Positions 11,911 through 34,390 of a DNA stretch of 64,000 bases are shown here, piece after piece; position 1 is the first letter of the stretch; each line of letters begins with the position of its first letter. Source of the stretch: an uncultured Dehalococcoidia bacterium. Its GTDB lineage: Bacteria; Chloroflexota; Dehalococcoidia; Lucifugimonadales; UBA3495. The stretch spans positions 720,880 through 784,879 of the forward strand of contig CATOSP010000002.1 of assembly GCA_951812625.1 (NCBI GenBank), read 5' to 3'. The notes under the pieces are model-generated. The model had not been told where the DNA came from. It did not search any database and saw only the letters and a program-made list of their open reading frames with translations. The position numbers and the translations under genes were made by a program.

Positions 11911-12053
11911 GGCGGGAGGAAACCCAACATGCCTACAGGCCCTTGTCAGCCCTGGAACCGTAGCCTCTCGCGCAAGCGCAATAATTTTATCAGACTAGGT
12001 TTTTCAAGACAGATTTTTCGACAGATAAGGAAATGAGAGGAGGCAGTGCGGTC
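11911..12053 (+). promoter_or_regulatory. AT-rich intergenic gap, probable operon boundary/promoter region
   Basis: This is the only sizeable non-coding gap in the first 31 kb and is conspicuously AT-rich (gcaataattttatcagactaggtttttcaagacagatttttcgacagataagg). It is followed by a GAGAGGAGG RBS 8 nt before ATG 12054. I could not assign exact -35/-10 boxes. Confidence 0.3.
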
Positions 12054-12908
12054 ATGACCCTATCCGACGTTCAGGAACACATCAACGGGGCCAGCGAAGC
12101 GCCCCCTCCCAACGCAGGGGAGGCTGCGGCCCAGGGATACAGCCCCGACCGGGCGCACCCCCTGGACCTGCGGAGCGAGTCCCGCCCCGGCAGCCACGAC
12201 GCCTACATGGGCATGGTCCGGTCGATGGTTGACCGGGAGATGCGGACCCTGGGCAGCTACATCCAGGCCGGGCGGTACAGGCATCAGAGGCTGCGGTCCT
12301 TGGTCACCCGGCTGTACCACCTGTCCCTCTGGCAGATCACCGCCCCTGCGGGCCTTCTGAACCACCGGCGCACTGAGCTGATCCGGGAGCGCAGCGCCAT
12401 ACAGGAGTTGCTCAGGGGCTTCGGCAAGCCCCTGGACCCCGAGGACGTGAGGAAGCTGGACGAAGACCAGCGGGAAGAGCTGTACGGGACTTCCCTCTTC
12501 TACGGGGAGGAGACGCTGAAGCAGTTCACCGGCTCCGCCTGGCTGGTCCCTATGGGCCTTCGGGACGCCTACGACCGCCTCGATGAGATCACCGCACGGG
12601 TAAAGAACCTCACCGTCCAGATACAGGAGGCCCAGCGCAACGGCCACTACTGGGACGGCGGGCCGCTGATCGAATACTTCAGGACTCCCTACAAGGACCG
12701 GGGGGACATCGACCTGATGGCCATCGCTCCCCCCTTCCTCCTGAAGCTCCAGGCGTACATCGACGTATCCATATCCGAGGTCTGGCGGCACCAGGCGCAG
12801 CGGATCACATCGCAGAGCGCCGACGGCGACGAGGCCTCCGACGTTGAGCCTGAAGCTGAACCAGGGAAGAAGAAGCGCAGCCTGTTCGGAAGGATGAGAG
12901 GGAAATGA
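12054..12908 (+). CDS. hypothetical soluble protein (284 aa), first gene of operon B
   Basis: A strong RBS precedes ATG 12054; the ATG at 12033 would sit on the RBS itself. Charged, helical-looking sequence with a basic C-terminal tail (PGKKKRSLFGRMRGK). The stop overlaps the next start (ATGA 12905-12908). Confidence 0.65.
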   Translation: MTLSDVQEHINGASEAPPPNAGEAAAQGYSPDRAHPLDLRSESRPGSHDAYMGMVRSMVDREMRTLGSYIQAGRYRHQRLRSLVTRLYHLSLWQITAPAGLLNHRRTELIRERSAIQELLRGFGKPLDPEDVRKLDEDQREELYGTSLFYGEETLKQFTGSAWLVPMGLRDAYDRLDEITARVKNLTVQIQEAQRNGHYWDGGPLIEYFRTPYKDRGDIDLMAIAPPFLLKLQAYIDVSISEVWRHQAQRITSQSADGDEASDVEPEAEPGKKKRSLFGRMRGK

Positions 12909-13360
12909 GAAGCATAGGCATAGGGCGAGACCTTGTTAAGACGTCGGAGGAAGACGCCCCGGTGACCATTGAACACCAGGACGGCTACCTGGAGGTGATT
13001 CCCGACGCCAAGCGGGAGCTGGGGCTGATCACCCACGAGGAGAGCCGCCAGGTACTGCCGGAGCGGGACCGGGTGCCCCAGTACCGGCTGAGTCTGGACG
13101 GGGATTTCGCGGAGCTGGACGGGGAGGTTGACTACTACGACGACGAGTTGACCGACCCGATCTTCAACCCCAGCTTCGCATTCGGAGCCTCGCTCGCAGC
13201 CTACGAAGCTGCGGAACGGGGGGAGCTGGGAGAGCCGGAGAACGTCAAGGCCCACGCCAAAGTCCAGTGGATCGCGGCGGCTGGCGGGGTGGCCTTCCTG
13301 GGCCTCTCCGCCCTGGCGGGGCTGGCGGTGCTGGGCGTACTGCCCTGGCAGGGAGGTTAG
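12905..13360 (+). CDS. hypothetical tail-anchored membrane protein (151 aa)
   Basis: ATGA-coupled start. Acidic N-terminal part and a single C-terminal TM helix (IAAAGGVAFLGLSALAGLAVLGVL). Confidence 0.6.
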   Translation: MRSIGIGRDLVKTSEEDAPVTIEHQDGYLEVIPDAKRELGLITHEESRQVLPERDRVPQYRLSLDGDFAELDGEVDYYDDELTDPIFNPSFAFGASLAAYEAAERGELGEPENVKAHAKVQWIAAAGGVAFLGLSALAGLAVLGVLPWQGG

Positions 13361-13362
13361 GG

Positions 13363-15165: not shown

Positions 15166-18100
15166 TGGCCATTAACAGACCATGCCGGCGTGGCCGCGGC
15201 AGCCGGATATGCACCCATTCCCGGCGCGGCCGCAGGAGTGGCAGCCGCGAAACAGGCCAGTTGGGAGATGAACGATTGCTGAAGCACAGAGACGGGGAGA
15301 GCGGATTCCCGGCCCTTTGGGACCTTCGCGGATACTGGGGGGCCTGCTTCGACCGGCCCCAGGCGGACTCCGACGGGGACGGCATCTCAGACCAGGCCGA
15401 GGAATACTACGCCGACAACCCGGAGGAGTTCGAGGAGCTTCAGGACTGGCTTGAGGATATGGGTGTCGATCCCTACCCCGACGACGCCATCGGCGACAAC
15501 AGCGACGACGACAGCGACGGGGAGTCGCCTGCGTTCAATGAGCTGATGGGCCTGGCCGCAGGCTCCAACCGGCCGTCCAGCGGGGCAAGGCCGCGAGGCC
15601 AGCACCTGGGCGACCCGCGCCACGACCAGGACCACCCCGACTACGACGAAGAGCAAGACCCCGGCAGCGACGACTTCAACCCTGGCTCCTTGAACCCGCA
15701 GGAACAGGAGTCGCTGACCCTGGAGCAGATGCGCCAGGACCTCAGCCTGCTGACCGGCCAGGGACAACCCCCTGCCGGACAACAGGACCAGCCCAAGACC
15801 TACGATGAGGCCCTACAGGCGTCCTCTGACGCGAATATGGCCTACAACGAGGGATTGGCGTCGGGCGCGTCCCCAGAGGAGATGGCCAGGCTGGAGGCGG
15901 AACGGGACGCTGCGCAACAGGCTTTTAGTTCTGCCGCAGAACGGAACAGGCGATTGGGGCGCAGTTCCGCCCCCCGGCACCTCGGCGATCCCCGGATTGA
16001 GGAAGACCACCCTGACAACCTTCCATCGGAAGAGACCACGGAGGGCCTCTGGGCCGAGGCCCTGGATGTATTGACCGGGGCATCCCCTACCCCCCGGACT
16101 GCTGCCCCCCTGATTGGGCAACATCTCGGCGATCCCAGGACAGACCCCTCGCACCCCGGGTACACGGGCTTCCAGGACCCTGCCAGCCCCGGCTACGACC
16201 GCTCGGAGCTGGACCCAGGCGACGCGGTGGGCCTCTACTGGCACCGGCAGGACACTGACCCCGAGGAGGCCACATCCCAGCAGCGATGGGAGGCATGGCA
16301 GATCGAGCGGGAGGCGGTCGAGCGGCTCCTGGACCCGGAGAACCTTCCGGAAGACCCGGAGGAGCTGCGCCGCTACTACACGGAACGGGTTCAACCCCAC
16401 GTCGAGGCCGCTATCGGGAGGCACGGAGACCTGAGTTTCGAGTCCACCGAGGGAAAGACCTTCGACGCCGGGGAACAGCTTCGCGGCGCGGTGGACTACC
16501 ATGTCGCATCTCTTGACACCAGGCAGCACAACGAGGCCATCGCCGATCAGTTGGAGATTCCCGGTTACGAAGATATGTCCGACCGCGAGCTGGCGGACGC
16601 GATCCAGGACAGCACCATCAGCACGGCACAGGGCCAGGGCTTCACCTTCGTAAACAACCCTGGGGCCGGGTCAAGGTACGACCAGGCGGCGCGGTATCTC
16701 CAGCAGCAGAGATACCAGGGCGAACAGGACACGATCAACGCGGCCCTGGGCAGCGGATGGGACCGGGCGCTGGGAACGCCCACCTATGAGCAGGCGGTGG
16801 ACTTCCTGGAGGGCCAGAACCAGTACATTGAACGGCACAATGAGCAGGTCCAGGCCCAAAATCTTGCCCTCGCCATTGAACACGGCTACGTTCCGGACGG
16901 CCCGGACCGCACTCCAGTCACGCCCTATGAGTACCTCCAGCAGTTGCAGGCGGAGTCCCGTGCAGCCGGGACTCGCGCCGAGGAAGGAGCCCTGGAGGAC
17001 CTGGCCGTGACCGCCGCCGGAAATCTGGACTTCACCGAGACCGGCAGCCTTGAAGAGCAGGGCAACATCGCCGCCTACAACAGTTACTTTGTGCGGTTGA
17101 CGGGGCATGAACCTACCGGCGACCCGGACGCGGATACGGCCCTGATAGCCGCAGCAGTAACCAGGGGCGAGACCGGGGCGCTTGAAGACCAGGGCAACAT
17201 CGCCGCCTACAACCGATGGTTCCAGGACTTCACCGACGGACAACTTCCCACCGGCATCGGTTACCTGGACGAAGCGGCGATCAGGGCAGCGGCGGGGCGG
17301 CGACTCGACCGGGACAGGAGCATCGCGGGAGACGAGGAAAGCGGCATTGGCGTCGGAACGCTGGAGAGCCTGCTGGCCCGGTTCGATACTATGCAGCGCC
17401 AACAGGAGCTCGACGAGGGCATAGAGGGAGACGAGGAAAGCGGCATTGGGGCCGGAACGCTGGAGAGGCTCAGACAGAGGGCTTTCCTCGGGGGCCTGGG
17501 CGGGGAAGACGACCTCGCCGCCGAGGAGTCCGCCCAGGTGCGCGATTCATGGGAGAGGGAATGGGAGAGCGTTGGCATAGCTGCCCCTCCCCATCCCTCG
17601 GACTACACCAGCGCGGACGAATACCGGCACGACCTGGAGATATGGAAGGAACGCCAGGAGAACCGCGCTCTGATTAACCCCGGTCTGGAACAAGGACTGG
17701 ACAACCTGGCGCTGCACGAGGCGGGGTTGCAGCAGGCCCTTGCCGACAACGAGGCGATTGCCCAGCTCTTCCACAATGAACTGGCGGACTCCAGGTATTT
17801 CATCCCCGATGACGCCAGGACTCATGCCGACGACATGACCGGGCTTTCCCCCGGCCAACTGGAGAAGGCCACCCAGATAGCTGCCGGGGAAACCCTGTCC
17901 CCCGTGGTGGTGGGCCACGTCGTTCTGGACCCGATGCAGTCCTTCGACCGGGAATCCTATGAGCAGGCCGTCTTGATGGCCAGAAGCGACCCGGAACTGG
18001 ACCAGCAGGTCAGAGAGTACGCCCAGGGCTACGGCCTGTACCGCCTGGAGCTTCCCGAATCCGAGATGAACGCACGGCGACTCCGGCTGCTGGAGGTCCT

Positions 18101-21100
18101 GTCATACGGCGCTCCCATTCCAGCCCTCGGATTGGGGAAGGTCGCGGGACTGGCCGCAAGGCCGCTGGCCAGAGCGACGGGTCCAGCCATAACCCGGATC
18201 GGCACTTCCGCCCTGAAGCTGGTGCGACCTGGGGCCAGGGCCGTCCCTCCGGCCATGAACGTCGCGGACGATGCAGCCGCGACCCTGGCGCAGAACGTGG
18301 GAGAATTTACCAGGCTGCTGGACGCCGGAAAAACCCGCCAGGCCCGCCGCTTTATGCAGAAGCGCCCCGATTTCCAGAAATGGGCCGTGCAGGGCGGGCT
18401 GGACCCCGCCGACATTGAGAAGGCCGGGATCGCGTCCTACCTGAAGGACGTGGCCAGGCCCAACGTGCTGCAACGCGCCCTGGGCAACACCGCCTTCAAT
18501 GTCGCGGCGCATACCGGGAGGTCGGCAACCGTAGGCTCTGGACTCAGCGGTACGATCTCGACCGGCCTCGCGGCAGCTCCCTTCGGCGGGGAGGGCTGGG
18601 GTCAGATCAGCCCCGACGAAAGGAAAGGAATCCTTGACGCCCTGTGGCAAGGTGCCATCGGGGGAGGCACTGGATATGGTGCCTTGCGCGGCGTCAACAG
18701 GCTCAGGCGCGGCGCGGGGAAACCGGCTTTGGGCCGCTTCCGGCAGTACGGGCTGTCCGCAGCCGAGGGCGCGAGTACCGACACCGGCCTTGCCCTGGTC
18801 CCCGGATTCCAGGATCCCACGTTTGGACGCATAACGGGGGACGAACAACTGGGGATCGCCCTGTCCACGGTGGCAGACCCGGCTTTCGACGCCGCCAGGG
18901 GCATTATAGGCATTGTCCGCCACCCCAAGAGCCTGCTGCCCGGAACCGTCTCGGCCAAGGGGTTGCAGGGCGGCACTCAGAAGCTCCACTACTCCCAGGT
19001 GTCAGCCGGTGACGATGTGGAGCTGCGCGAGGTCACGTCCCTTGCCGACGATGGCATCACTCCGATTGCCACTCTCCAGCCGGAGAGCAGAATCCGCCTG
19101 GAGATAGACCGCAGGCTGGCGGTCCATCCCCAGCGCATCAGGCCGGGGGATGAATCGGGTCTGGCCTACGACCAGATACTCAGCTCCGGCCTTGACCCGG
19201 TAAGCGGCCTGAAGCTCAAGGAAGACATACTGGACGCTATGGCCAGGGGGGAAACGGACTTCCGTGGCGTGACTCCCAGCGGCATACCGTACCGCTTCAC
19301 GCTGCCAGCCGCCTACAGGACAGGGGTATTCGACCCCGGCGCGGCGGCGCACCTGTCACCGGACGCTTCATTTGCGGTCCTGGCCAAGGGAGAAGACCCG
19401 GGGGCCACCTTCGCCACGCGCAGCACCAACCCCAACTCGGTAGAGGAAGTGCTGTACTTCCAGCCGGGAGCGATGGCGCTGCGGTACTTCGGCGGGTCGG
19501 CCAGCGGCAACACCGGGGCTGACGCCACCAGGGAATCGTATCGGGAGACTATAGCCGGGTTCGCGGGCCTCCCCAACTTCGCCCGGAGAGCCATCGGCTT
19601 GCAACCCGTACAACCCGCAGCCCTGGTGCTGACTCCGGCAGAGGTGGAGGGTCTGACCGCCCGCAACGTCGTCGAGGACGGCCCGGACGAACTGCCGTCC
19701 AAGTCCTTCCCCGGCGCGGCTGAAACGGGAGGACGAGACCCGCTGCCCCAGGAAGTCTTCGGCAGACAGGGGGCCGAGGCCGAGGTCGTCATATCTCCGG
19801 GAGGGGACCTGGACAAGCGCAGACTCTCGACCCACATCCTTGGGGGAGGGCCGACCGCCGTTAATCCCGAATTGGCCGATCCCAGCTTCCGGGATGTATG
19901 GCGCACCAACCTGGTGAGCCTGTCTGATGCGCTTCCATTCGGCACCAGCATCGGTCTGCGCCTGGACAAATCGCCGGAGCAACTGGCCAAGGCCCGCGAG
20001 TTCTTCGAGAACAGCGGGGTAAGGCGCAGTACAGAGAACGATGGACGGTTTGAGGTTGACGCCGTGGTGGACGGCGCAAGGTACCGGGTACGCACCGACG
20101 ACGACCCTTCCAGGATGCTGGAGAGCGTCAGAAGCGGTCAGGGCGGCGATGTAACCAACGTGGTCATCCGCGACACCGAGACCGGGCGGGTGGAGCAGGT
20201 GAGCGCCCCGGACACCGCCGATGTGGACATAGGCACTACCCGCGCACCACGAGACGGCGACGGCTCTCTACGCACCAGGCAAGAACCCGGTGCAGACCCG
20301 GATACTACGCGAGTCAGACCCGATACGGCGAGGATAGCTAACGCCAGGGCAGACCGGGTTGACGCCGACCGCCTGGACACCGACAGGGTTGAGCGGGTTG
20401 ACACCGATCGCCTGGACACCGCCAGGGCAGACCGGGTTGATACCGACCGCCTGGACACCGCCAGGGTTGAGCGGGTTGACACCGACCGCCTGGACACCGC
20501 CAGGGCAGACCGGGTTGACGCCGAGCGTGTGGACACCGCCAGGGCAGACCGGGTTGATACCGACCGCCTGGACACCGCCAGGGCAGACCGGGTTGATACC
20601 GACCGCCTGGACACCGCCAGGGCAGACCGGGTTGAAACCGAGCGCCTCGACACCGCCAGGGCAGACCGGGTTGATACCGACCGCCTGGACACCGCCAGGG
20701 CAGACCGGGTTGACGCCGAGCGTGTGGACACCGCCAGGGCAGACCGGGTTGACGCCGAGCGCCTCGACACCGCCAGGGCAGACCGGGTTGAAACCGAGCG
20801 TGTGGACACGCCACGGACAGACCGGCCCAAGCCTGAGCGCATCCAGCGCCCTCCGGGGAAGACTCCCAGGCAACCCGGACGTGGCCGCACTACGCGGGAC
20901 GACCCCGGCAAGCCTCGGATTCGTCTACGCCTCGGTGGGCAAGGAGGCGAGGACAAAGCGGAGCAAAGGCCTCCGCACCTGAAGTATCCCAAGGTGGTGC
21001 GATTCCAAACCGTAGAAGATGTTGTAGTGGACCTGGAGACCGGGGACACGACGCGGACCCCGGTAGGCGACCTCCCGTCACAGACCCTTGAGGTCGTCAA

Positions 21101-21479
21101 GTACAACCCTCTACCCTTCTCGGAGCAGCACTATACCGGACGCATTACAGACGTGGCCACCGACGACCAGGGCCACCCCTTCATTCTCCAGAGAGGCCAG
21201 TTCCAGGGACAGCGGGAGAAAAAGATCAAGGCACCAACGGAACGTGACCCCAAGGAACGGGACCGAATCCAGAAGGGGTTGCAGAAGGACATTGCCGCAG
21301 CGGAGGCGGCGGACGCCAACCGTCAGAGCGGCAGCAGCGGCGTCGGCAAGCGGCGGGGAAGTGGCATTTCCACTCCCAAGCCAGGGCCAACGGTCAATCG
21401 CGGCCAAGGCCCCAAAAGCAGGTTTGGAAGCCGCACCACGGCAGACCGCTTCATGCGCACCCGGAAGCTGAAAGTCTAG
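15165..21479 (+). CDS. orphan giant protein (2104 aa) with internal repeats and a basic C-terminal tail shared with the next gene
   Basis: ATG 15165 overlaps the upstream stop (TGATG); the listed start 14946 lies inside the upstream gene. Acidic N-terminus, three HLGDPR-x5-HP(D/G) motifs, the pair GALEDQGNIAAYN / SLEEQGNIAAYN, and the pair GDEESGIG(V/A)GTLE. There is a 13-aa tandem array and the C-terminus ends GSRTTADRFMRTRKLKV. No enzymatic motif recognised. Confidence 0.8.
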   Translation: MAINRPCRRGRGSRICTHSRRGRRSGSRETGQLGDERLLKHRDGESGFPALWDLRGYWGACFDRPQADSDGDGISDQAEEYYADNPEEFEELQDWLEDMGVDPYPDDAIGDNSDDDSDGESPAFNELMGLAAGSNRPSSGARPRGQHLGDPRHDQDHPDYDEEQDPGSDDFNPGSLNPQEQESLTLEQMRQDLSLLTGQGQPPAGQQDQPKTYDEALQASSDANMAYNEGLASGASPEEMARLEAERDAAQQAFSSAAERNRRLGRSSAPRHLGDPRIEEDHPDNLPSEETTEGLWAEALDVLTGASPTPRTAAPLIGQHLGDPRTDPSHPGYTGFQDPASPGYDRSELDPGDAVGLYWHRQDTDPEEATSQQRWEAWQIEREAVERLLDPENLPEDPEELRRYYTERVQPHVEAAIGRHGDLSFESTEGKTFDAGEQLRGAVDYHVASLDTRQHNEAIADQLEIPGYEDMSDRELADAIQDSTISTAQGQGFTFVNNPGAGSRYDQAARYLQQQRYQGEQDTINAALGSGWDRALGTPTYEQAVDFLEGQNQYIERHNEQVQAQNLALAIEHGYVPDGPDRTPVTPYEYLQQLQAESRAAGTRAEEGALEDLAVTAAGNLDFTETGSLEEQGNIAAYNSYFVRLTGHEPTGDPDADTALIAAAVTRGETGALEDQGNIAAYNRWFQDFTDGQLPTGIGYLDEAAIRAAAGRRLDRDRSIAGDEESGIGVGTLESLLARFDTMQRQQELDEGIEGDEESGIGAGTLERLRQRAFLGGLGGEDDLAAEESAQVRDSWEREWESVGIAAPPHPSDYTSADEYRHDLEIWKERQENRALINPGLEQGLDNLALHEAGLQQALADNEAIAQLFHNELADSRYFIPDDARTHADDMTGLSPGQLEKATQIAAGETLSPVVVGHVVLDPMQSFDRESYEQAVLMARSDPELDQQVREYAQGYGLYRLELPESEMNARRLRLLEVLSYGAPIPALGLGKVAGLAARPLARATGPAITRIGTSALKLVRPGARAVPPAMNVADDAAATLAQNVGEFTRLLDAGKTRQARRFMQKRPDFQKWAVQGGLDPADIEKAGIASYLKDVARPNVLQRALGNTAFNVAAHTGRSATVGSGLSGTISTGLAAAPFGGEGWGQISPDERKGILDALWQGAIGGGTGYGALRGVNRLRRGAGKPALGRFRQYGLSAAEGASTDTGLALVPGFQDPTFGRITGDEQLGIALSTVADPAFDAARGIIGIVRHPKSLLPGTVSAKGLQGGTQKLHYSQVSAGDDVELREVTSLADDGITPIATLQPESRIRLEIDRRLAVHPQRIRPGDESGLAYDQILSSGLDPVSGLKLKEDILDAMARGETDFRGVTPSGIPYRFTLPAAYRTGVFDPGAAAHLSPDASFAVLAKGEDPGATFATRSTNPNSVEEVLYFQPGAMALRYFGGSASGNTGADATRESYRETIAGFAGLPNFARRAIGLQPVQPAALVLTPAEVEGLTARNVVEDGPDELPSKSFPGAAETGGRDPLPQEVFGRQGAEAEVVISPGGDLDKRRLSTHILGGGPTAVNPELADPSFRDVWRTNLVSLSDALPFGTSIGLRLDKSPEQLAKAREFFENSGVRRSTENDGRFEVDAVVDGARYRVRTDDDPSRMLESVRSGQGGDVTNVVIRDTETGRVEQVSAPDTADVDIGTTRAPRDGDGSLRTRQEPGADPDTTRVRPDTARIANARADRVDADRLDTDRVERVDTDRLDTARADRVDTDRLDTARVERVDTDRLDTARADRVDAERVDTARADRVDTDRLDTARADRVDTDRLDTARADRVETERLDTARADRVDTDRLDTARADRVDAERVDTARADRVDAERLDTARADRVETERVDTPRTDRPKPERIQRPPGKTPRQPGRGRTTRDDPGKPRIRLRLGGQGGEDKAEQRPPHLKYPKVVRFQTVEDVVVDLETGDTTRTPVGDLPSQTLEVVKYNPLPFSEQHYTGRITDVATDDQGHPFILQRGQFQGQREKKIKAPTERDPKERDRIQKGLQKDIAAAEAADANRQSGSSGVGKRRGSGISTPKPGPTVNRGQGPKSRFGSRTTADRFMRTRKLKV
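20343..20815 (+). repeat. ~12 tandem copies of a 39-bp unit (13-aa TARADRVDTDRLD repeat) inside the 2104-aa gene
   Basis: The unit gacaccgccagggcagaccgggttgataccgaccgcctg is repeated head-to-tail with point variants (ADRVD/VERVD, TDRLD/AERVD/TERLD). Confidence 0.9.
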
Positions 21480-21500
21480 GCTGAAACTCTAGGAGGAATC

Positions 21501-24500
21501 ATGCCCGATTACGTTGCAACCGGCACGGAGCTGCCGCAGACCGCCATAGCGCGTTGGGACGCCAACATTGACGCGATCCGGGTGCTGAAACGGTTGCAGG
21601 CCGAGGGCCGCGCCGCCACCCCGGAAGAGCAGAAAGTCCTGGCGAAATACTCCGGTTTCGGAGATTCGGCCTACGAGCAAGCCTTTGCCTACTACCAGCG
21701 CGACTCTGCCTGGAAGAAGCGCAAGGAAGAGCTGGAAGAACTGGTTACGCCCGAAGAACACGACGCCATCAAGAGGTCCCGGCTCAACGCCTTCTACACC
21801 ACGCCGGAGGTAATCCGGTCGATGTGGTCGGGGCTGCGGGACCTGGGCGCGGACAAACTCCCCAGGCCCAAGGTGCTGGAACCGTCTGCCGGATCGGGCC
21901 GCTTCCTGGCCTACCAGCCCCGCGATATGGCCGCATCCTCCGAGCGCACCGCCGTCGAGCTGGACAACCTGACGGCCGGGTTGCTCAAGGGCCAGTTCCC
22001 CGATGCCACGGTCTACAATGTCGGGTTCGAGGCCGCGCCGGTCCCGGACGGCCATTTCGACATAGCCGTCTCGAATGTTCCCTTCGGCAACTACGGAGTC
22101 CACGACCCCGAATACCTGGCGGAAGGGAAGAACTATCTCACCGGCAGCATCCATAACTACTTCTTCGCCAAATCAATGGACAAGCTGCGTCCGGGCGGCG
22201 TCCTGGCCTTCATCACCACGCATCACACGATGGACGCGCCCAAGGCGCGGAAAGTCCGGGAATACCTGGCGGACAAGGCCGACCTGGTGGGCGCGGTACG
22301 CCTGCCGGAAGACGCATTCCCCGATACCGAGGTTGTCACGGACATCATCTACCTGAGAAAACGCGCCCCCGGCGAACCGCCCGGCGACCGGACCTGGGTG
22401 AGTACGCAACCACTGGAAGTCCCGGATGCCAGGGGCGGTACTCATACGCACTCCGTCAACAGCTACTACTTGCAGAACCCCGATATGGTGCTGGGCAGAC
22501 AGACCGCCGAGGGGACGATGTACGCGGGCCAGTCCTATACCGTCAAGCACGACCCGGACAGCGCCCCGGTCCCGGACAAGCTGGCGGCGGCAACCAGCCG
22601 GGTATCCGCCTCTCCCCTGAAACTTGACCCGGCCACCGCCGCCGCGCCCAGCTCCGGCCAACGCCGGTCCCGCGCCGCTGGCCACCAGGAAACCGTCAAC
22701 GTGTGGGCAGAGCGGGTCGAGGCCGAAACCGGCGACACGGAGAGGCCGCGACGGTTGGCGGAGTTGGCCAACACCACCCGACGCCTCCTGAACGCGGAGA
22801 AGGGACGCATCGACGACGACCCGGAGCAGATAAGGGCCGAACTCAACAGCCAGTACCAGGATTACGTCGATGCCCACAAGCGCCTCAACCACAAGTCCAA
22901 CCGGGACCTGCTGAAGGGCATGGTTGACGAATCGCTGCTCATGGCCCTGGAGAACCACGACCCCGACACCAAGAAGTGGGAGCGGTCGTCGATCTTCAGC
23001 CGCCGCCTGGCCAGGGACAACCCGGAGCGGCACGTCACCAACGCCGCCGACGCCATGAGCGTTGTGCTGAACGAGTCCGGGGCTCTGGACTTCGAGCGCA
23101 TGGGCCAACTGCTGGGACAGGACGCCAGCGCCGTGCGGAACAGCCTGGCCAAGGACCGGCTGATATTCCGCAACCCGATGGGCAGTTGGGAAACGGCCAA
23201 CGAATATCTGACCGGAAGGGTCCGGGACAAGCTGGAGGTAGCCCGCAGGGTTGCCGGGAACAACCCGGCCTTCCAGGTCAACGTGGCCGCGCTGGAACAG
23301 GTCCAGCCGGAACCAGTACCGGCCAGCGACATTGAAACTCCCCTGGGAGCGCCCTGGATTCCCGACGACGTTGTGAATGATTGGGTGAAGCAGAACCTTG
23401 CGTCAAGCCGTTTTGGGCAACCTGACAGGTGGTTCCGGTACAACCCGGAGTCCGGCGAGTGGGGCTACAACAAGAAGGTGAGCGGCTACGAGGCGGTAAT
23501 GCGCTCCCAATGGGGCACCGAGGGCATGGCCGCAGACAAAATCCTGGAGGCCGTCCTTAAGGGCACTCCCATCAGCGTGACCATGCCCAACCCCGACGGC
23601 GAGGGGAGGGTCAGGGACCCGGCGGCAACCGAGGCGGCGCAGCAGAAGGCCCGCCAGATGCAGGACAGCTTTTCCGAGTGGATTTGGCAGGACGCAGACC
23701 GTGAAGAGCGCCTGGTCAAGCGGTACAACGAACTGCACAACTCCACACGGCCAAGGGTATTCGACGGGTCTCACCTGACCTTCCCCGGTATGTCCCCGAA
23801 ATGGGCGGAGAGGATGCGGCAGCGGCAGCACCAGATGGACGCATCCTTCCGGGTAGTCAGTGACGGCACCGCGCTCCTGGCCCATGAAGTGGGTTTCGGC
23901 AAGACGGCGGTGATGATCAGCTCGGCTATGGAACGGCAGCGGCTGGGACTGATCGACAAGCCCGTGTTCGTCGTTCCCAAGGCGACCCATGAGCAATTCG
24001 CCAGCGACTTCCGCGAGATGTATCCGGGGGCAACCCTGCTGGCCCCCAGCCCCTCGGAGTTCAGCAAGAAGAACCGGGAAGCCTTCCTGAACCGCGCGGC
24101 CACCGGCGATTGGGACGGCGTGGTCCTGACCACCAACCAGTTCCAGAGCATCCCGGTCAAGCCGGAGACGGAAGCCCGCTGGGTCGAGGCGCAGATTGCC
24201 GACCTGGAAGCGGCGTTGAGTGCCGCCAACGAGGAGAACGAGACCAGCAGGGAATCACAGACGCAGAAGCAAATCCAGAAGAAGCTGGAGAGAGAACAGA
24301 AGAGGCTCAAGGACCTGCGGGCGCAGATCAGCGCCGGGGCTGACAAGGGGGTTGTCTACTTCGAGGACCTGGGGATCGACCAGCTCTACGTTGACGAAGC
24401 CGACCAGTACAAGAACCTGCCCTTCGCAACGAAAATGGGGCAGGTGAAGGGTCTGCCCAACTCGGAGTCCAAGCGGGCCTGGGATATGTTCCTGAAGACC

Positions 24501-27500
24501 CAGCACATCCAGGGGCTGGCGGAGAGCCAGTCCGGGTCTTATGCGGGCCGGGGCGGTGTCGTGTTCGCCGCCAGGCCGAGCGACTTTGCCGACAACGGGG
24601 TGGTGTTCGCCACCGGGACGCCCATATCCAACACCATTGCCGAAGCCTGGACCATGATGCGCTATCTCCAACTGCCGGAGCTGAGGCGGCAGGGACTCCA
24701 GCACTTCGACGCCTGGGCCAAGACCTACGGCAAGATCACAATGGGGATGGAGCAGACCCCCCAGGGCAAGTACCGGAACACCCAGCGGTTCGCCAAGTTT
24801 GTGAACCTGCCGGAGTTGTCCCGGCTCTTCCAGAACGTGGCCGATGTGCGGGTGGCGTCCGAAGTCCCGGAGATGGTCGCCGTGCGCCCCCGCCTCGTAG
24901 ACGCCAGGGGAAACCCGAAACGGACCGGCATCAAGGCCCCCAACTACCCATTCCTGGAAGCCTACATGGAGCATCTGCGGGACCGGGTTGACAAACTGCC
25001 CGAAAAGCAGCCGGAAGAGGACAATATGCTGCTCATATCCAGCGACGCACGCAAAGCGTCCCTGGATATTCGGATGGTCTGGCCCGAAGCCGAACCCAAC
25101 CCCAACGGCAAGGTGCAGCTTGCCGCGTCGAAGATCGCGGAGATTCACAAGGCCGAGGAAGCCGACAAGGGAACGCAGTTGGTCTTCCTGGACCTGGGAA
25201 CGCCCAAGGCCAGCGACAAGCCGAAGGAAGGCGACGACGATTCTGAGGAAGAAGGCGGCGAGGGCCTGACCGCAGAGGAGTCGAAGATCGTCAACAACGT
25301 CTACGGCATCCTGAAACGGGAGCTGGTGAGGCGGGGCGTTCCCGAGAAGGACATCGCCTTTGTCCAGGACCACAAGACCAGGGATGCCAGGAAAAAGCTC
25401 TTCGATAATGTCCGCTCCGGCGATGTGCGGGTCCTGATCGGCTCGACCGAGACGGTCGGCGTAGGGGTCAACGTGCAGGACCGGGCGGCGGCGCTGCACC
25501 ACCTGGACGTTCCCTGGAGACCACGGGACATAGAGCAGCGGGAAGGTCGGATAATCCGCCAGGGCAACAAGGTCTACGGCCCCAGGATCGAGGAAGAGAC
25601 CGGCGAGGTCGTCAACCCTGGGCGCGGGGTGCAAATCTACCAGTACGTCCAGGAAGGCAGCTTCGACGAATTTATGTGGCAGGCGGTGGAGGTCAAGGGG
25701 CAGGCGGTCAAGGCCCTGATGAAGCGGAACATCACCGCCCGGTCTATGGACGATGCCGACCCCCTGGTGTTGAGCGCGGCTGAGGCCAAGGCGCTGGCCA
25801 GCGGCAACCCTATGGTGCTCCGGGCGGAACAGATCAAGAACCAGATCAATACGCTGCGCCTGGAACGCGCCGCCCACAGGAACCAGCAGGAGAACGCCAG
25901 AGGGCAGATCAGGCGGCTGGAAACGATGATTGAGGCTCACCGGGAGCGGCTTCCCATTCTGGAGGTTGACGCCCAACACGCCCTGGAAAACGACGGCGAG
26001 GACAAGCTGAGGGTGAGCGGCCAGCCCATTGAGAAGCGGGCCGATGCGGGGAAAGCAATCGAGACCCGGTTGTCCCGGCTGAACGTGGGCGATGTGACCG
26101 GGATCGGCACGTACAAGGGTTTCGACGTAAGCGCGGCCAACAGCGACCGGGGCTATCAGCTTGCCGTGACCAACCCGGCCACAAAGATTCCCTACAGCTC
26201 CGCCTACATCGAGGAAGTCAATCCCGCTGGCCTGATGTCCCGGCTGGACAACCTGGTAAACGGCATACCCAGGTCCCTGGAAAGCTCCAGGGACCTGTTG
26301 AATCAGCACGAAACATCCCTGGAACTCTACCGGGAACAGGCCGGCAAGCCGTTTGAAGGGACGCCGGAGTTGGCCAAGAAGGAACGCCACCTGGCCTACG
26401 TCCAGGCCCTCCTGAGCGATGCCAAGGACGCCGTGCGTCCGCCGGACTTCGACGAAGACCCGTCCGGGACGGTCGAATACGACACGCCGGAACTGGAAGC
26501 GGAGACGGCTGCGCCAGGCCCGGCAGCAACCCAGCCGGGACCGGAGACGGTTGCCGTCGCGGAAGCCCCGGTTGCCGGACCTTCCCCGGTCGATGATGCC
26601 CCGGCGCAGCCGGAGACGGCGGCGGTCGCGGCAGACGTGGCCACACCAGAGCCAGAGGCGGTTGCTGAACCTTCCCCGGTCGATGATGCACCGGCAGAGC
26701 CGGAGACGGCGGCGGTCGCGGCAGACGTGGCCACACCAGAGCCAGAGGCGGTTGCTGAACCTTCCCCGGTCGATGATGCACCGGCAGAGCCGGAGACGGC
26801 GGCGGCCGCGGAGGCGGTAGCCCAGCAGGAACCGGAGACCGTTGCTGAACCTTCCCCGGTCGATGATTACCCCGCAGAACCGGAGACGGCGGCAGTCGCG
26901 GAGGCGGTAGCCCAGCAGGAACCGGAGACGGTTGCTGAACCTTCCCCGGTCGATGATTACCCCGCGCAGCCGGAGACGGCGGCGGTCGCGGAAGATGCGC
27001 CCGCGCGAAGTCAGGAAAACACGGCCCCCTATATCCCGCCCTACGACCCAGCCATTGACGATGCGCCGGTCAGCCCGGAGCAGGAAGAAGCGGAACGGCT
27101 GGCCAGGGACACACGGCTCGCAGCCATGCGTGAGGAGAAGCGGGCCAATAACGAGCAACTAAAGGAATGGGCGCTGGGAAAGCTGGCCCAGGGACAGGAT
27201 TTGCTTTTCCAGACCGAAGGGATTGGGCCGGCCGTGATTCTCAGGGCCAAGGTGGTTGCGGATTGGCAGTCGAAAGGGCATCAACCGATCCTGGTGGGTT
27301 CGGAGGGGAATCTGCGTATCCTCGGTGGCCAAAGGCAGGGCCGTCCCAAGTACGACACGGTTTTGTCCGGGGGGATCGTGTCCGGCGATGGGCAACACAT
27401 GATTATCAACAAACCCATGCCGGAAACCCCTGAACCTTCCGGGGAGGTTGCCGAGCCAACCCCGATTGAGGAAGCCAAGGTTCAGACGGAGACGGCGGCG

Positions 27501-29156
27501 GTCGCGGAAGACGTGGCCACACCGGAATCAGAGGCCGTAACTGAACCTTCCCCGGTCCAGGATTACCCCGCAGAGCCGGAGACGGCGGCGGTCGCGGCAG
27601 ACGACGCCCAAGTTGAGCCGGTGACGGAACGACCACCTAGCGTAGAGCCTGAAAAGAAGCAGTCCAGCGTGATGGGGCTGCATATAACGCGGAACCCCGA
27701 CGGCACCTGGGGTTTTGCCGGTTCGATTCCCGATGAGTTGGCTTTCCGGCAGTATGACGGGTCTCCGCTTACAGAAGAACAAGCTGCAAGCGTGCAAGAA
27801 ACCTCACCTCTCAGTGTTCCCGGAGTGCGTATTGCCAAGTTCGAGACGGAAGCGGAAGCACTGGCCGCTGCCAGTGACGCGGGTTATGCGGAGGTATGGC
27901 GCAGCGGGGACATAGTATCAACCACGCCAGATACTCCACCGCCCTCCGAGAGACAGTTGGGCAAACTACCTCCGGCAAGCCTGACTGAGGAACAGAAGCT
28001 CGCCTTCTATCGCGGGGATATATACCCGGTCGTAACGCCCAGACGGGGAGACCCCGACGCTGTCGTGATGGACCCAGCAGATGAATCCTGGCTGGAAGCC
28101 GTCAGCCTCAAATACAAGGGGGTTCTGGATCGGCCCGACTCCAAATCGGTAGATGTCGGTAGGGCTCTGTCCTGGTTCCACAGGGCGGGAATTGACCATA
28201 GCGAGATTCCCAGCTACCAAGACCATGCCCCTTCAGAAGTGGAGAAAGATGCCCGTACTCAAGACGAAAGGCGGGAATCCCCGGAACCAACCGAGTCCGA
28301 GACCGAAGAACTGGTTGAGCAGGTAATGGCGGTCAAGGACGATGGGCATATCAGCCCGGAAGAGGCCGAGGACACCGCCAGCGCAGCGGGCAAGCTGTTG
28401 CAGAAGGCCGAGGAAGAAACCCCTGACCCGCCCAGCGTCACCCGGACGTATGAGAACGCCAGGGAACTCGATGCCCTGCTTGAAGAGCTGTGCGACGACC
28501 CCGAAGAACTGGCCGCGCTCCGGGAAAGAGTTGCCCAGGCCCAGGCCCGCTCCGAACATCAGGCGCGGGCCAAGGGAGAGGAACCCGACGAAGTACCGGC
28601 TGAAGTCCGCCGTGTCGCTGGCGAGATTCTCGCCGCCAAGGAACAGGCCACACCGGACGGACCGAAGGAGAAGGGCAGACCTCGCCGGGTGCGGGAAGAA
28701 GATGCGGAACTCCTGGCACGGGTAGAGGAGGAATGCGACGAAGACACCCTGGCACAGGGGCAAGAGCAAGCCGATGGGCAGAACGGCAAAGCCCCTCTGC
28801 CCATGAGGAAGCCGAAGGCCCGGACCGGCGGCGACGAGAGCAAGGACCGGGAACAGGACCAGGACAAAGAACCTGTACCTGTGCTGGCCAAGAAGCCGAT
28901 AACGCCCATCAAGGAACGCTGCCCGGAGGAACGGGAGAACATCCGCAAGGAGCTACAGCGAGAAATAGCCGTGGCTGATGCGTCTGCCGAGACCGCTGAA
29001 AGGCGTAGGCGCGTCAAGGGCCATAAGGGGAGCGTGGGCATTGTCTCTCCAGCTCCAGGCCCCGGACGCATCGGCGGCAAGGTCAAGAGGACCAGGTACG
29101 GCAACCGTACCACGGCAGACCGCTTCATGCGGACCCGCAAGGTCAAGTCGCGCTGA
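21501..29156 (+). CDS. giant 'polyvalent' protein: N-terminal N6-adenine DNA methyltransferase fused to SF2 (SNF2/DEAD-like) helicase, long repeat-rich C-terminal extension
   Basis: AGGAGG RBS at 21491-21496. MTase motif I VLEPSAGSGRF (~21873-21905) and motif IV SNVPFG (22071-22088). Helicase motif I GFGKTA (23891-23908), motif II DEAD (24393-24404), motif III-like FATGTPISN, and motif VI QREGRIIRQGN (25536-25568). E/P/A-rich 30-aa repeats follow. The C-terminus ends GNRTTADRFMRTRKVKSR. Confidence 0.92.
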   Translation: MPDYVATGTELPQTAIARWDANIDAIRVLKRLQAEGRAATPEEQKVLAKYSGFGDSAYEQAFAYYQRDSAWKKRKEELEELVTPEEHDAIKRSRLNAFYTTPEVIRSMWSGLRDLGADKLPRPKVLEPSAGSGRFLAYQPRDMAASSERTAVELDNLTAGLLKGQFPDATVYNVGFEAAPVPDGHFDIAVSNVPFGNYGVHDPEYLAEGKNYLTGSIHNYFFAKSMDKLRPGGVLAFITTHHTMDAPKARKVREYLADKADLVGAVRLPEDAFPDTEVVTDIIYLRKRAPGEPPGDRTWVSTQPLEVPDARGGTHTHSVNSYYLQNPDMVLGRQTAEGTMYAGQSYTVKHDPDSAPVPDKLAAATSRVSASPLKLDPATAAAPSSGQRRSRAAGHQETVNVWAERVEAETGDTERPRRLAELANTTRRLLNAEKGRIDDDPEQIRAELNSQYQDYVDAHKRLNHKSNRDLLKGMVDESLLMALENHDPDTKKWERSSIFSRRLARDNPERHVTNAADAMSVVLNESGALDFERMGQLLGQDASAVRNSLAKDRLIFRNPMGSWETANEYLTGRVRDKLEVARRVAGNNPAFQVNVAALEQVQPEPVPASDIETPLGAPWIPDDVVNDWVKQNLASSRFGQPDRWFRYNPESGEWGYNKKVSGYEAVMRSQWGTEGMAADKILEAVLKGTPISVTMPNPDGEGRVRDPAATEAAQQKARQMQDSFSEWIWQDADREERLVKRYNELHNSTRPRVFDGSHLTFPGMSPKWAERMRQRQHQMDASFRVVSDGTALLAHEVGFGKTAVMISSAMERQRLGLIDKPVFVVPKATHEQFASDFREMYPGATLLAPSPSEFSKKNREAFLNRAATGDWDGVVLTTNQFQSIPVKPETEARWVEAQIADLEAALSAANEENETSRESQTQKQIQKKLEREQKRLKDLRAQISAGADKGVVYFEDLGIDQLYVDEADQYKNLPFATKMGQVKGLPNSESKRAWDMFLKTQHIQGLAESQSGSYAGRGGVVFAARPSDFADNGVVFATGTPISNTIAEAWTMMRYLQLPELRRQGLQHFDAWAKTYGKITMGMEQTPQGKYRNTQRFAKFVNLPELSRLFQNVADVRVASEVPEMVAVRPRLVDARGNPKRTGIKAPNYPFLEAYMEHLRDRVDKLPEKQPEEDNMLLISSDARKASLDIRMVWPEAEPNPNGKVQLAASKIAEIHKAEEADKGTQLVFLDLGTPKASDKPKEGDDDSEEEGGEGLTAEESKIVNNVYGILKRELVRRGVPEKDIAFVQDHKTRDARKKLFDNVRSGDVRVLIGSTETVGVGVNVQDRAAALHHLDVPWRPRDIEQREGRIIRQGNKVYGPRIEEETGEVVNPGRGVQIYQYVQEGSFDEFMWQAVEVKGQAVKALMKRNITARSMDDADPLVLSAAEAKALASGNPMVLRAEQIKNQINTLRLERAAHRNQQENARGQIRRLETMIEAHRERLPILEVDAQHALENDGEDKLRVSGQPIEKRADAGKAIETRLSRLNVGDVTGIGTYKGFDVSAANSDRGYQLAVTNPATKIPYSSAYIEEVNPAGLMSRLDNLVNGIPRSLESSRDLLNQHETSLELYREQAGKPFEGTPELAKKERHLAYVQALLSDAKDAVRPPDFDEDPSGTVEYDTPELEAETAAPGPAATQPGPETVAVAEAPVAGPSPVDDAPAQPETAAVAADVATPEPEAVAEPSPVDDAPAEPETAAVAADVATPEPEAVAEPSPVDDAPAEPETAAAAEAVAQQEPETVAEPSPVDDYPAEPETAAVAEAVAQQEPETVAEPSPVDDYPAQPETAAVAEDAPARSQENTAPYIPPYDPAIDDAPVSPEQEEAERLARDTRLAAMREEKRANNEQLKEWALGKLAQGQDLLFQTEGIGPAVILRAKVVADWQSKGHQPILVGSEGNLRILGGQRQGRPKYDTVLSGGIVSGDGQHMIINKPMPETPEPSGEVAEPTPIEEAKVQTETAAVAEDVATPESEAVTEPSPVQDYPAEPETAAVAADDAQVEPVTERPPSVEPEKKQSSVMGLHITRNPDGTWGFAGSIPDELAFRQYDGSPLTEEQAASVQETSPLSVPGVRIAKFETEAEALAAASDAGYAEVWRSGDIVSTTPDTPPPSERQLGKLPPASLTEEQKLAFYRGDIYPVVTPRRGDPDAVVMDPADESWLEAVSLKYKGVLDRPDSKSVDVGRALSWFHRAGIDHSEIPSYQDHAPSEVEKDARTQDERRESPEPTESETEELVEQVMAVKDDGHISPEEAEDTASAAGKLLQKAEEETPDPPSVTRTYENARELDALLEELCDDPEELAALRERVAQAQARSEHQARAKGEEPDEVPAEVRRVAGEILAAKEQATPDGPKEKGRPRRVREEDAELLARVEEECDEDTLAQGQEQADGQNGKAPLPMRKPKARTGGDESKDREQDQDKEPVPVLAKKPITPIKERCPEERENIRKELQREIAVADASAETAERRRRVKGHKGSVGIVSPAPGPGRIGGKVKRTRYGNRTTADRFMRTRKVKSR
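26577..27000 (+). repeat. ~5 tandem copies of a 90-bp unit (30-aa EPSPVDDAPAEPETAAVAADVATPEPEAVA repeat) in the polyvalent protein
   Basis: The string gaaccttccccggtcgatgat recurs at 26667, 26757, 26847 and 26937 (exact 90-bp period), with a first variant copy at ~26577. A diverged extra copy lies at ~27540-27600. Confidence 0.9.
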
Positions 29157-29169
29157 ATTGGAGGACAGG

Positions 29170-29742
29170 ATGAACAAGACGAACGCGCTCAAACAGAAGC
29201 AGTACGAGAAACCGCCGGGCATGGCTATAGACCCGGCCGATAGCTGCACCGCAACCATCGAGACCAGTCTTGGCGATATGGTGTTGCAGCTCTGGCCCGT
29301 GACGGCCCCCGTCACGGTCAACAACTTCGTCTTCCTGGCCAGGGACGGGTTCTACGACGACAGTTGCTTTCACCGGGTAATCCGGGGATTCATGGTCCAG
29401 GGCGGCTGTCCTGAGAGGACAGGACGGGGAGGGCCTGGCTACAGCTTTCAGGACGAACCCGTAACCCAGCCCTACACCAAGGGAGTGCTGGCTATGGCCA
29501 ACTCCGGTCCCAACACCAACGGAAGCCAGTTCTTCATCGTCCACGCGCCGGAGGTGGAGCTGCCGCCCAAGTACAGCATCTTCGGGAACCTGGTCTCCGG
29601 GGAAGATGTGCTGGACGCCCTGGCCGGATCGCCGGTCACCGCAGGGGCCGGAGGGGAGAGGTCCAGGCCCACGGACTGGCTGGTGATCCGCACGGTCAGA
29701 ATCTCGGAATCTGGGGAAACGGCGGAAGCGCCGGAGGAGTAG
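29170..29742 (+). CDS. cyclophilin-type peptidyl-prolyl cis-trans isomerase
   Basis: GGAGGA RBS before ATG 29170; the listed start 28978 lies inside the upstream gene. Cyclophilin signatures are present: FHRVIRGFMVQGGCP and GVLAMANSGPNTNGSQFFIV. Confidence 0.92.
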   Translation: MNKTNALKQKQYEKPPGMAIDPADSCTATIETSLGDMVLQLWPVTAPVTVNNFVFLARDGFYDDSCFHRVIRGFMVQGGCPERTGRGGPGYSFQDEPVTQPYTKGVLAMANSGPNTNGSQFFIVHAPEVELPPKYSIFGNLVSGEDVLDALAGSPVTAGAGGERSRPTDWLVIRTVRISESGETAEAPEE

Positions 29743-29745
29743 CCC

Positions 29746-31056
29746 ATGCCCGTCTTGGCCGTAACCCCCGACATACTCCGCCAGGGGAGGCAGGACCTGG
29801 ACGCCGCCTTTGGCATTACCGGCACGGCGGACGTGCGCTACGGCCCGCCCCAGCCGCCCCTGGAGGAACTGCACGGCAACACCTTCACCCCCGACATGGT
29901 CGGGGATATGGGGAAGGACCCCTTTGACGACGACGATTTCTCAATCGACCAGCGAGTGAAGGCAGCCCAATACCTGCTGGCCTGCTACGACGCCAACCGG
30001 GAGAGGCCGGTGTACCCGCCGATCTGGTTCACCCCCGGCCTGTATATCCTGTCCGGCGACGTGGGAGACGGCAAGACTCTGACCGCCGTTTCCGTGGCCG
30101 TCAAGTTTATGATGTGCGGCTGGCCCGCCTACTCCGCCAACGGCGGTCTCCTGTTCGGCAAGATGCTGGAGGATGCCCAGGTCTACGCCTTCCCGGAGTT
30201 CCTGTCCCGTGGCAGCGTCTGTGTGGCGGATGAAATACACGCCATCTACGGGCGCTATGAGGGCCAGACCGTCCGGGGCCGGACGATGGCCCAGGCCACC
30301 GCATCCTTCCGCAAGGAACGAATCTACGCCTTCGGCGCGACGGCCAGGGAACACCTGTTGGGACAGGACCTGAAGGCGGCGGTCAGGGGCGTTGGCTACC
30401 CCTTCCGCACCTATCCCAATGGAAAGCCCATTGCGCCGCCCTGGGCCTACCGGGGCATAAGCTGGTACTACCCCGACCCCTGGCGCGGCACACAGTACCG
30501 GGAAATCCACGACAAGGAAGAAAGCCACCGCGAGCCCTGCCGGAAGTACGTCGCTGAACTTCATGCTTACGACCTCTACACCGCCGCCAAGCACTACAAC
30601 TCCTGGGAGAAGATCACCCTGGACTTCGGCGGCAAGCTGGGGGCCGGTAAGTTCCGGGACGCGATCTCCGGAGACGGGGAGAGTGGTGAAACCGAGGGAG
30701 ACCGCCCGCGAACTCCCTGGGCTTCTTCGCGGCGCGGGCCTAGCGATGAAGCCGTCGGGCTGACGGTCTTGAGCTGGTACGAGGATGGCCACTTCAACGC
30801 GGAGGTCGAGGCGTACAACAGCGCCATCAGCGCAGCCCGCACCACCGAAAGGGGCGATATGCTCATATCCCTGAAGGACCTCGCCGAGCGGTTCACCCAT
30901 ACTACCGGGGTCAAGACCACTGTTGCCCGGATGAAGCGGGGGCTTGACGCTGCCGGGATCGAGTATTCGTACCGCAGCTTGAACGTGGAAGCCCTGGAAA
31001 CGGCGCTCAGGGACAGGGAGCAGACCCTACAGGACAGCTTCGCAGGCGGTGAGTGA
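29746..31056 (+). CDS. P-loop NTPase (Walker A/B), possibly Zot/pI-like; function unknown
   Basis: Begins 3 nt after the PPIase stop. Walker A GDVGDGKT (30055-30078) and Walker B VCVADEIH (Asp-Glu at 30229-30234). No TM helix. The remainder is unrecognised. Confidence 0.7.
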   Translation: MPVLAVTPDILRQGRQDLDAAFGITGTADVRYGPPQPPLEELHGNTFTPDMVGDMGKDPFDDDDFSIDQRVKAAQYLLACYDANRERPVYPPIWFTPGLYILSGDVGDGKTLTAVSVAVKFMMCGWPAYSANGGLLFGKMLEDAQVYAFPEFLSRGSVCVADEIHAIYGRYEGQTVRGRTMAQATASFRKERIYAFGATAREHLLGQDLKAAVRGVGYPFRTYPNGKPIAPPWAYRGISWYYPDPWRGTQYREIHDKEESHREPCRKYVAELHAYDLYTAAKHYNSWEKITLDFGGKLGAGKFRDAISGDGESGETEGDRPRTPWASSRRGPSDEAVGLTVLSWYEDGHFNAEVEAYNSAISAARTTERGDMLISLKDLAERFTHTTGVKTTVARMKRGLDAAGIEYSYRSLNVEALETALRDREQTLQDSFAGGE

Positions 31057-34389: not shown

Positions 34390-34390
34390 G

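Follow-up and report, generated by a model that had tools for sequence, protein, structure and literature searches.

We report here the analysis of a large gene located at positions 21501..29156 (+ strand) of a stretch of 64,000 nucleotides (nt), referred to below as the window, from contig CATOSP010000002.1 of an uncultured Dehalococcoidia bacterium. The uninterrupted 7.6-kb open reading frame (ORF) starts with an ATG codon, preceded at a distance of 4 nt by the Shine–Dalgarno (SD) sequence AGGAGG (21491..21496, +). The encoded protein of 2551 amino acids (aa) consists of a gamma-class N6-adenine methyltransferase (MTase), an SNF2-type ATPase of helicase superfamily 2 (SF2), a conserved helical module and a variable C-terminal region. 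It is related to DarB of bacteriophage P1 and will be called here the DarB-like protein. The gene is carried by an integrated mobile element and stands next to the gene of a second giant protein, giant-1, which has a matching basic tail at its C-terminus.

The DarB-like gene and its family

A preliminary description of the window had named an MTase–helicase fusion at this position, and the intact ORF, the strong SD sequence and the Pfam matches of both kinds bear this out. The families N6_Mtase, Eco57I and Helicase_C score above their Pfam cutoffs, and SNF2-rel_dom (24.4 against a cutoff of 24.9) and ResIII slightly under them. MTase motif I, VLEPSAGSGRF, which binds S-adenosylmethionine (21873..21905, aa 125–135), precedes motif IV, SNVPFG (22071..22088, aa 191–196), with the catalytic NVPF variant of NPPF. 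The helicase motifs begin about 600 aa downstream of motif IV with motif I, or Walker A, GFGKTA (23892..23909, aa 798–803), and continue with motif II, DEAD (24393..24404, aa 965–968; VDEAD from 964), the motif III-like FATGTPISN (24606..24632, aa 1036–1044; TGTP at 1038) and motif VI, QREGRIIRQGN (25536..25568, aa 1346–1356), all on the + strand and all in the order and at the spacing first described. An identical 2551-aa protein (P0001), encoded on a 2.28-Mb contig, is present in a public protein collection, where it has the precomputed assignments PF28553, PF28554 and PF28555. A PDB sequence search with the core returned nothing informative and no family relative with a solved structure.

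Our homologue set comprises the 120 closest database proteins, whose cores, except for a few, are 42–73% identical to that of the DarB-like protein. Five motifs are kept in 117–120 of these 120 proteins (MTase motif I in 119, motif IV in all), and the catalytic motifs of the window protein are intact. P1 DarB has the counterparts LEPSAGTG, GNVPFG, GLGKT and QRNGRGARVG. The motifs are not due to chance, since they are conserved so widely among the closest homologues and recur in P1 DarB.

The DarB-like character of the protein, suggested initially from its motifs, is confirmed by the match of aa 16–1647 to PHROG 10089, "DarB-like antirestriction" (1396 bits, profile positions 1584–3220 of 4647), and by BLASTP against P1 DarB (YP_006479 from NC_005856, 2255 aa), in which three stretches align in colinear order, one over the MTase (30% identity, E 7e-19) and one over each of the two helicase lobes (E 1e-21 and 6e-9). 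In both proteins the MTase, a linker of about 600 aa and the SNF2-type ATPase follow in the same order and the catalytic motif reads NVPF; both are giant and both are encoded by mobile elements, but their identity is only 23–30%. Several close homologues were named "N12 class adenine-specific DNA methylase" by JGI. Because of the PHROG match, the colinear homology to P1 DarB, the conserved motifs and the fact that profiles of defence systems match only locally (see below), the assignment of the ORF to the DarB / COG4646 "N12-class" MTase–helicase family (PHROG 10089) is secure. The enzyme family itself is well known and very common, and the annotation adds one more DarB-like anti-restriction candidate to it. 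The outcome as a whole is a correct and rather ordinary annotation with an interesting, testable extra.

The core of 1666 aa is equidistant from its phage and plasmid relatives, the best identities being 35.9% and 36.1%, respectively. A tblastn search with this core gave relatives of nearly full length at 33–36% identity. Among phages there were 143 records, the best of them from PEp14, VvAW1, SopranoGao, POI1126 and Itty13, with 34–36% identity over 94–98% of the core; among plasmids there were 2069 records, of which 1174 cover at least 80% of it. The best characterised matches are giant podophage virion proteins, namely those of Erwinia phage PEp14, Klebsiella phage SopranoGao (gp06), Burkholderia phages Bcep22 and JC1 (gp69) and Vibrio phage VvAW1, and the Bcep22-like JC1 gp69 has been found in virions by mass spectrometry (PMC9144972). 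The giants of the PEp14/SopranoGao/Bcep22 type belong to the same PHROG 10089, at the identity and coverage just given. They measure, however, 3700–4500 aa and have about 1500 additional N-terminal residues, whereas the core of the window protein begins at aa 16; their genes come last in a virion module that is readily recognised, directly before the lysis genes; and SopranoGao gp06 has a C-terminal PLxRFG module which the window protein lacks. Neither the DarB-like protein nor giant-1 contains a PLxRFG-like motif, there was no match to the NCBIfam PLxRFG model, and tblastn of the DarB-like C-terminal region against the SopranoGao locus (L006) found nothing. Membership in the PLxRFG giant virion proteins of Bcep22/PEp14/Lastavirus-type podophages was ruled out on the basis of the missing motif, C-terminal module and N-terminal extension. 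Nor does giant-1 represent the missing N- or C-terminal part of such a giant, as it has no significant BLASTP similarity to SopranoGao gp06.

Polyvalent proteins of phages and of conjugative elements have the MTase–SNF2 module in common (Iyer et al. 2017, PMC5512222), and those of conjugative plasmids and integrative and conjugative elements (COG4646) contain the same MTase–SNF2(–LPD36) type of dyad. The window protein, originally proposed to be of the polyvalent class, has the dyad. The gene context of such proteins, either phage packaging and late genes or a type IV secretion system (T4SS) with a relaxase, was not found among the larger ORFs of 1–36 kb. Polyvalent proteins also typically include ArdC-N, a zincin metallopeptidase, a primase or other domains, none of which was found, and the plasmid-borne relatives of the window protein do not exceed 36% identity.

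The DISARM (DrmD/DrmMI), BREX (BrxHI/PglX) and type ISP/IIG systems likewise bring together an N6-adenine MTase and an ATPase of the SF2 or SNF2 kind, either as domains or through adjacent genes. The window protein differs from these in having neither a nuclease domain nor partner genes nearby. The defence profiles match it only locally and far below their cutoffs (DrmD 39.3 of 610 bits, ZorD 18 of 1500, MAD2 17 of 720), and all PADLOC matches are local and do not exceed 51 bits. A DISARM, BREX or type IIG component was therefore ruled out, and with it the alternative, raised in the preliminary description, of chromosomal restriction–modification (R-M), DISARM or BREX relatives with their usual partners.

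Matched C-terminal tails of the two giant proteins

The last ~900 aa of the DarB-like protein, described at the outset as E/P/A repeats and unassigned stretches, have no match in Pfam, PHROG, NCBIfam or PDB. The repeats are indeed there: an acidic, E/P/A-rich unit of 90 nt (30 aa) is present in 4.7 tandem copies at 26569..26992 (+), and one further copy lies at 27446–27627 (+). There are also acidic stretches without a family match, and a helical acidic module (28311..28736, +; aa 2271–2412) with 37–45% identity to the DarB-like proteins of the related loci L002 and L007–L009. The protein then ends in a basic stretch, with a net charge of +16 in the final 50 aa. A strongly basic end, judged by the last 30 aa, is found in 72% of the 120 closest homologues.

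This basic end is shared with giant-1. The tail occupies aa 2464–2551 of the DarB-like protein (28890..29153, +), ending in ...SPAPGP..RYGNRTTADRFMRTRKVKSR, and its counterpart in giant-1 is encoded at 21210–21476 (+). The two proteins are unrelated except in these last ~86 aa, where they are 44% identical (E 2e-13) and run out in RTTADRFMRTRK(V/L)K. In an exhaustive profile search the tail was found in only 8 of 1.84 billion cluster representatives, and always at the extreme C-terminus.

Related loci make it possible to follow this feature beyond a single pair of genes. Four element lineages each have a tail of their own, common to the DarB-like protein and the giant encoded beside it: ...RTTADRFMRTRK in lineage A (the window and L001), ...PRPPSTAAPK..AFTA(G/A)MR in lineage B (L007–L009), ...PPPTL(L/F)(V/I)K in lineage C (L003) and ...LAR..(K/R)KHG(L/P)R in lineage D (L013). 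The last 40 aa were compared by local BLOSUM62 scores, with 2000 composition-preserving shuffles per lineage. The scores within lineages (mean 97, minimum 41, n = 15) do not overlap those between lineages (mean 25, maximum 33, n = 34), and the observed score was reached by 0 of 2000 shuffles in lineages A, B and C and by 10 of 2000 in lineage D. According to a six-frame motif search, the DarB-like protein and the giant are the only carriers of the tail in each locus, and BLASTP confines the similarity of the two giants within an element to the C-terminal end. The simplest reading of the matched tails is that they would constitute an element-specific, co-evolving C-terminal address signal read by one machinery; the presence of the same tail on both giants suggests that they are loaded by the same transfer machinery. 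As a precedent, T4SS substrates have positively charged C-terminal signals. A C-terminal region is likewise needed for encapsidation of the virion RNA polymerase (vRNAP) of phage N4, as quoted in PMC5512222. What is new here, compared with the DarB-related systems described so far, is the matched C-terminal tails and the unclassified element that encodes them.

Two further observations concern the tail sequences. An identical 23-nt stretch encoding RTTADRFM is present in both genes (21435–21457 and 29109–29131), with flanks that are about 55% identical. Constraint at the nucleotide level was ruled out because the L001 copies vary at synonymous sites, which shows that it is the protein that is constrained; local gene conversion or chance is a likelier source of the 23-nt identity than a nucleotide-level element. 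In L007 an orphan lineage-B motif, AFTAAMR followed by a stop codon, lies at nt 25141 in an ORF of 11 codons, and the tyrosine integrase gene begins about 0.8 kb farther on. This motif may be what is left of a third gene with a tail, or else a scar of recombination.

The host element and its genes

The suggestion that the 1–31 kb block is derived from a mobile element was upheld by several lines of evidence. The G+C (GC) content is 0.63–0.68 across the block and 0.55–0.59 beyond it, with the step at ~31 kb. Synteny with L001, a 60.6-kb contig, is weak from ~11.8 kb, firm from 12.0 kb and stops at 31056. Some of the related loci contain integrases, some lack the DarB-like gene and one has a permuted gene order. 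On these grounds the block is assigned to an integrated mobile element whose length is 31 kb or more. The window begins inside this element, and a search for att sites by means of repeats gave nothing usable, because the left end lies outside the window.

In the more distant subfamily represented by L007–L009 the loci end in tyrosine integrases. L011 is a compact element of ~20 kb with homologues of nearly all genes of the 1–31 kb block (the gene cut by the left edge of the window, the cadherin/Ig proteins, a trio of 291-, 151- and 632-aa proteins, the peptidyl-prolyl isomerase, giant-1 and the ATPase). A DarB-like gene is missing from L011, and compared with the window its genes stand in a circularly permuted order. 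L010, on the chromosome of a Dehalococcoidia metagenome-assembled genome (MAG), has giant-1 and the ATPase and no DarB-like gene within the stretch examined; L012 has giant-1, the ATPase, a 665-aa protein and a cadherin-domain protein, again with no DarB-like gene. The order in L013 is DarB-like gene, giant, ATPase, and in L003, from a Binatia MAG, a giant ORF is paired with a DarB-like ORF. As related loci share a gene set, some of them without the DarB-like gene and one circularly permuted, this gene is an accessory cargo of an integrated element family. The name of the 55,696-bp ENA contig of L012, ctg480527_9.28x_c, ends in "_c", in contrast to "_l" for the other contigs, perhaps because the assembly is circular, in which case some members of the family exist as episomes.

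In the window four genes form a tight operon in the order giant-1, DarB-like, cyclophilin and P-loop ATPase, separated by gaps of 21, 13 and 3 nt. Giant-1 (15276..21479, +; 2067 aa, intact; database entry P0148, starting MLKHRDGE) has no known domains. Gly-rich hydrophobic segments and, at 20342–20825 (+), 12.4 tandem repeats of a 13-aa unit (ARADRVDTDRLDT) were found in it. Four of the eight members of the giant-1 family have a NUDIX insert, which is absent from the window copy, and one member gives a weak tape-measure-like match to PhageMin_Tail (E 0.0018). The cyclophilin-type peptidyl-prolyl isomerase (29170..29742, +), conserved in L001 and L011, is unusual for a mobile element and might help the giants, which are rich in proline, to fold or refold.

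The last gene of the conserved block encodes the P-loop ATPase (29746..31056, +; 436 aa; Walker A GDVGDGKT, Walker B VADE), for which only 27 homologues exist among 5.8 billion proteins. The family scans yielded only a sub-threshold AAA match, and no sequence match was found in PDB, none by tblastn in phages or plasmids and no relative in IMG/VR. The best fold match of its AlphaFold model (pLDDT 77) is the N-terminal domain of Zot (2r2a; E 5e-6, TM-score to target 0.55), with RecA, FlaH and phi8 P4 ranking next; in BFVD the matches are Zot proteins of Inoviridae and a protein of Acholeplasma phage L2. The predicted fold may thus be described as Zot-like with a modest match. Since the fold search gives only this modest Zot/RecA-like similarity, we did not accept the ATPase as a member of the Zot family.

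Farther upstream the trio of 291-, 151- and 632-aa proteins (12033..15165, +) is syntenic in L001 and L011. The 151- and 632-aa products are membrane proteins, the larger being polytopic and containing CxxC zinc-ribbon repeats as well. Three surface proteins with cadherin/Ig repeats (327, 1476 and 902 aa; 1968..10083, +) are assigned to the element because they have homologues in L011 and L012. All three have an N-terminal signal or transmembrane (TM) segment, and the two larger ones a C-terminal TM anchor; one matches Pfam Cadherin 11 times, and the DNA that encodes these matches consists of at least 10 repeats of ~297 nt. Similar proteins are encoded in the host region at 55136–58237 and 58392–63896.

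This gene neighbourhood bears on the question of what the SNF2 motor is for. It could act mainly in DNA entry, in such a way that the DarB-like protein together with giant-1 forms or accompanies a conduit and pulls in double-stranded DNA (dsDNA), in the manner of N4 vRNAP or T7 RNA polymerase, with methylation being secondary. The DarB-like protein always comes paired with another giant, which contains Gly-rich hydrophobic segments, and one member of the family of this giant shows the PhageMin_Tail similarity. This would fit such a role, as would the presence of only one other ATPase in the element and the co-expression of both giants with it in a tight operon that the gene spacing implies. 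However, L010, L011 and L012 retain other element genes and do without the DarB-like gene, so the protein is not essential for transfer, and its MTase motifs are as strictly kept as those of the ATPase. We consider a primary role in DNA entry improbable.

Proposed delivery and protection of the incoming DNA

We regard as the best explanation, and as a probable one, that the DarB-like protein is a functional MTase–translocase of the DarB family, carried as accessory cargo, which is loaded by means of its tail together with giant-1, delivered with the DNA and protects it in cis from restriction. Delivery, methylation activity and anti-restriction function are inferred here by homology. The proposed course of events follows the proposals made for P1 DarB and for the polyvalent MTase–SNF2 dyad. 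The two giants would be made from one operon, and the packaging or export machinery of the element would recognise them by the basic C-terminal tails that match in both, so that they are brought into the next host along with the element DNA. There the SNF2-type dsDNA translocase would move the enzyme along the incoming duplex, with the methylase marking adenines, and either this marking or simple occupancy would shield the DNA in cis from the restriction systems of the new host for as long as the element needs to become established.

A precedent is P1 itself. About 40 copies of P1 DarB are packaged per virion; they are believed to reach the inside of the cell, and the protein gives protection against EcoK and EcoB (PMC9024508). 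Protection in cis from type I restriction is known for P1 DarB; in the window the tail shared with giant-1 would support delivery indirectly. Its capsid targeting depends on the N-terminal 30 residues and requires DarA, Hdf, DdrA, DdrB and Ulx (PMC9024508). The family scans, which covered the larger ORFs of the window, revealed no homologue of any of these five proteins.

A number of observations weigh against the explanation outlined above. The candidate signal in the window is C-terminal and common to a second giant, whereas that of P1 DarB is N-terminal. We know of no demonstration to date of either an MTase activity or a mechanism for P1 DarB. In lineages C and D the tail match is limited to motifs of 8–14 residues that BLASTP does not detect. 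No terminase, portal, capsid, relaxase or T4SS gene was found among the larger ORFs of 1–36 kb by means of Pfam, PHROGs, NCBIfam and PADLOC, nor in ten L007 ORFs or among the Pfam assignments precomputed for the related loci. Finally, the region may be decaying, though both giant ORFs are intact, since a large serine recombinase gene (41773–43305, +) has an in-frame TAG at 41854, directly after the catalytic YSRVSSDRQ...SISG, and a type IIG/ISP-like R-M gene in a low-GC (0.56) island (36363–39351, –) is split into ORFs of 534 and 442 aa. These two ORFs match successive parts, positions 7–528 and 567–963, of one PADLOC model of 1024 positions, and the gene is therefore probably disrupted.

The stop codon in the serine recombinase gene and the split type IIG gene could also be taken to mean that the DarB-like gene is itself a non-functional relic in a decaying island. 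This is scarcely credible in view of its uninterrupted 7.6-kb ORF, intact catalytic motifs and strong SD sequence, of the intact 2067-aa giant beside it, and of the L001 orthologue, which is 73% identical over the core and still 62% over the last 300 aa.

A functional enzyme might, however, be active solely in the element-bearing cell and never be transferred, either by methylating DNA of the element or of the host prior to transfer, like the orphan Dam-type methylases of phages, or in self-marking or exclusion, with the tail serving for localisation to the membrane or to a complex. In favour of this reading, no delivery vehicle is identifiable in the element, and there are weak local profile matches to MADS Mad2, DrmD and BrxH. 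These defence matches are nevertheless at the level of domains only (39 against 610 bits for DrmD) and come without partner genes, the best full-length match is to the virion-associated DarB family, and matched tails on two otherwise unrelated giants would be hard to explain. On balance a purely resident role seems unlikely to us.

When the neighbouring genes were scanned for known families (larger ORFs, 1–36 kb), nothing was recognised apart from the cadherin/Ig domains, the cyclophilin and the sub-threshold AAA match. A PHROG protease match among the ten L007 proteins (E 4e-4) was too weak and was not accepted. P1 DarB is encoded by a tailed phage, while the window element cannot be recognised by its profiles as a tailed phage or as a conjugative element with a T4SS. 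A membrane-associated, non-tailed transfer vehicle is a lead rather than a finding, and our search for literature on Zot-type or pleomorphic viruses of Chloroflexi found no papers. Related elements were seen in MAGs with the labels Dehalococcoidia and Binatia, as well as in metagenome contigs that bear no label. We put forward only tentatively that the DarB-like protein and giant-1 are the cargo of an unrecognised class of integrated elements of ~20–31 kb, devoid of the hallmarks of tailed phages and T4SS and built on a Zot-like ATPase and a cyclophilin together with polytopic membrane proteins and with cadherin/Ig proteins that are anchored in the membrane and would serve as spikes or adhesins. 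In these elements the short, basic, lineage-specific tails would be the address code for loading of giant effectors. Budding particles like those of plasmaviruses or pleolipoviruses, or a new mating apparatus, are possible analogues.

A tail that co-varies between lineages on two otherwise unrelated giants provides a handle on how giant effectors are selected for transfer together with DNA, and it might be exploited to equip the transfer vehicle with foreign proteins. In addition, the DarB-like gene flags a family of mobile elements, probably in Chloroflexota to judge from the nearest relatives, that the current phage and plasmid detectors would miss because it has no PHROG or Pfam hallmarks and its ATPase has no relatives in IMG/VR or in the phage and plasmid collections.

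The remaining features of the window lie beyond 31 kb. The 3' end of the serine recombinase gene has an 80–82% identical copy 7.65 kb downstream (50507–50958), which is a stop-interrupted fragment. The ORF at 34382–35536 (+) contains a unit of 123 nt (41 aa) in three tandem copies (34869–35256) that are 99% identical to each other. At 44409–48185 (+), in a region of host GC content and unrelated to the DarB-like gene, a protein of 1258 aa is encoded with 8 CARDB repeats, each of which has a conserved Cys-containing motif.

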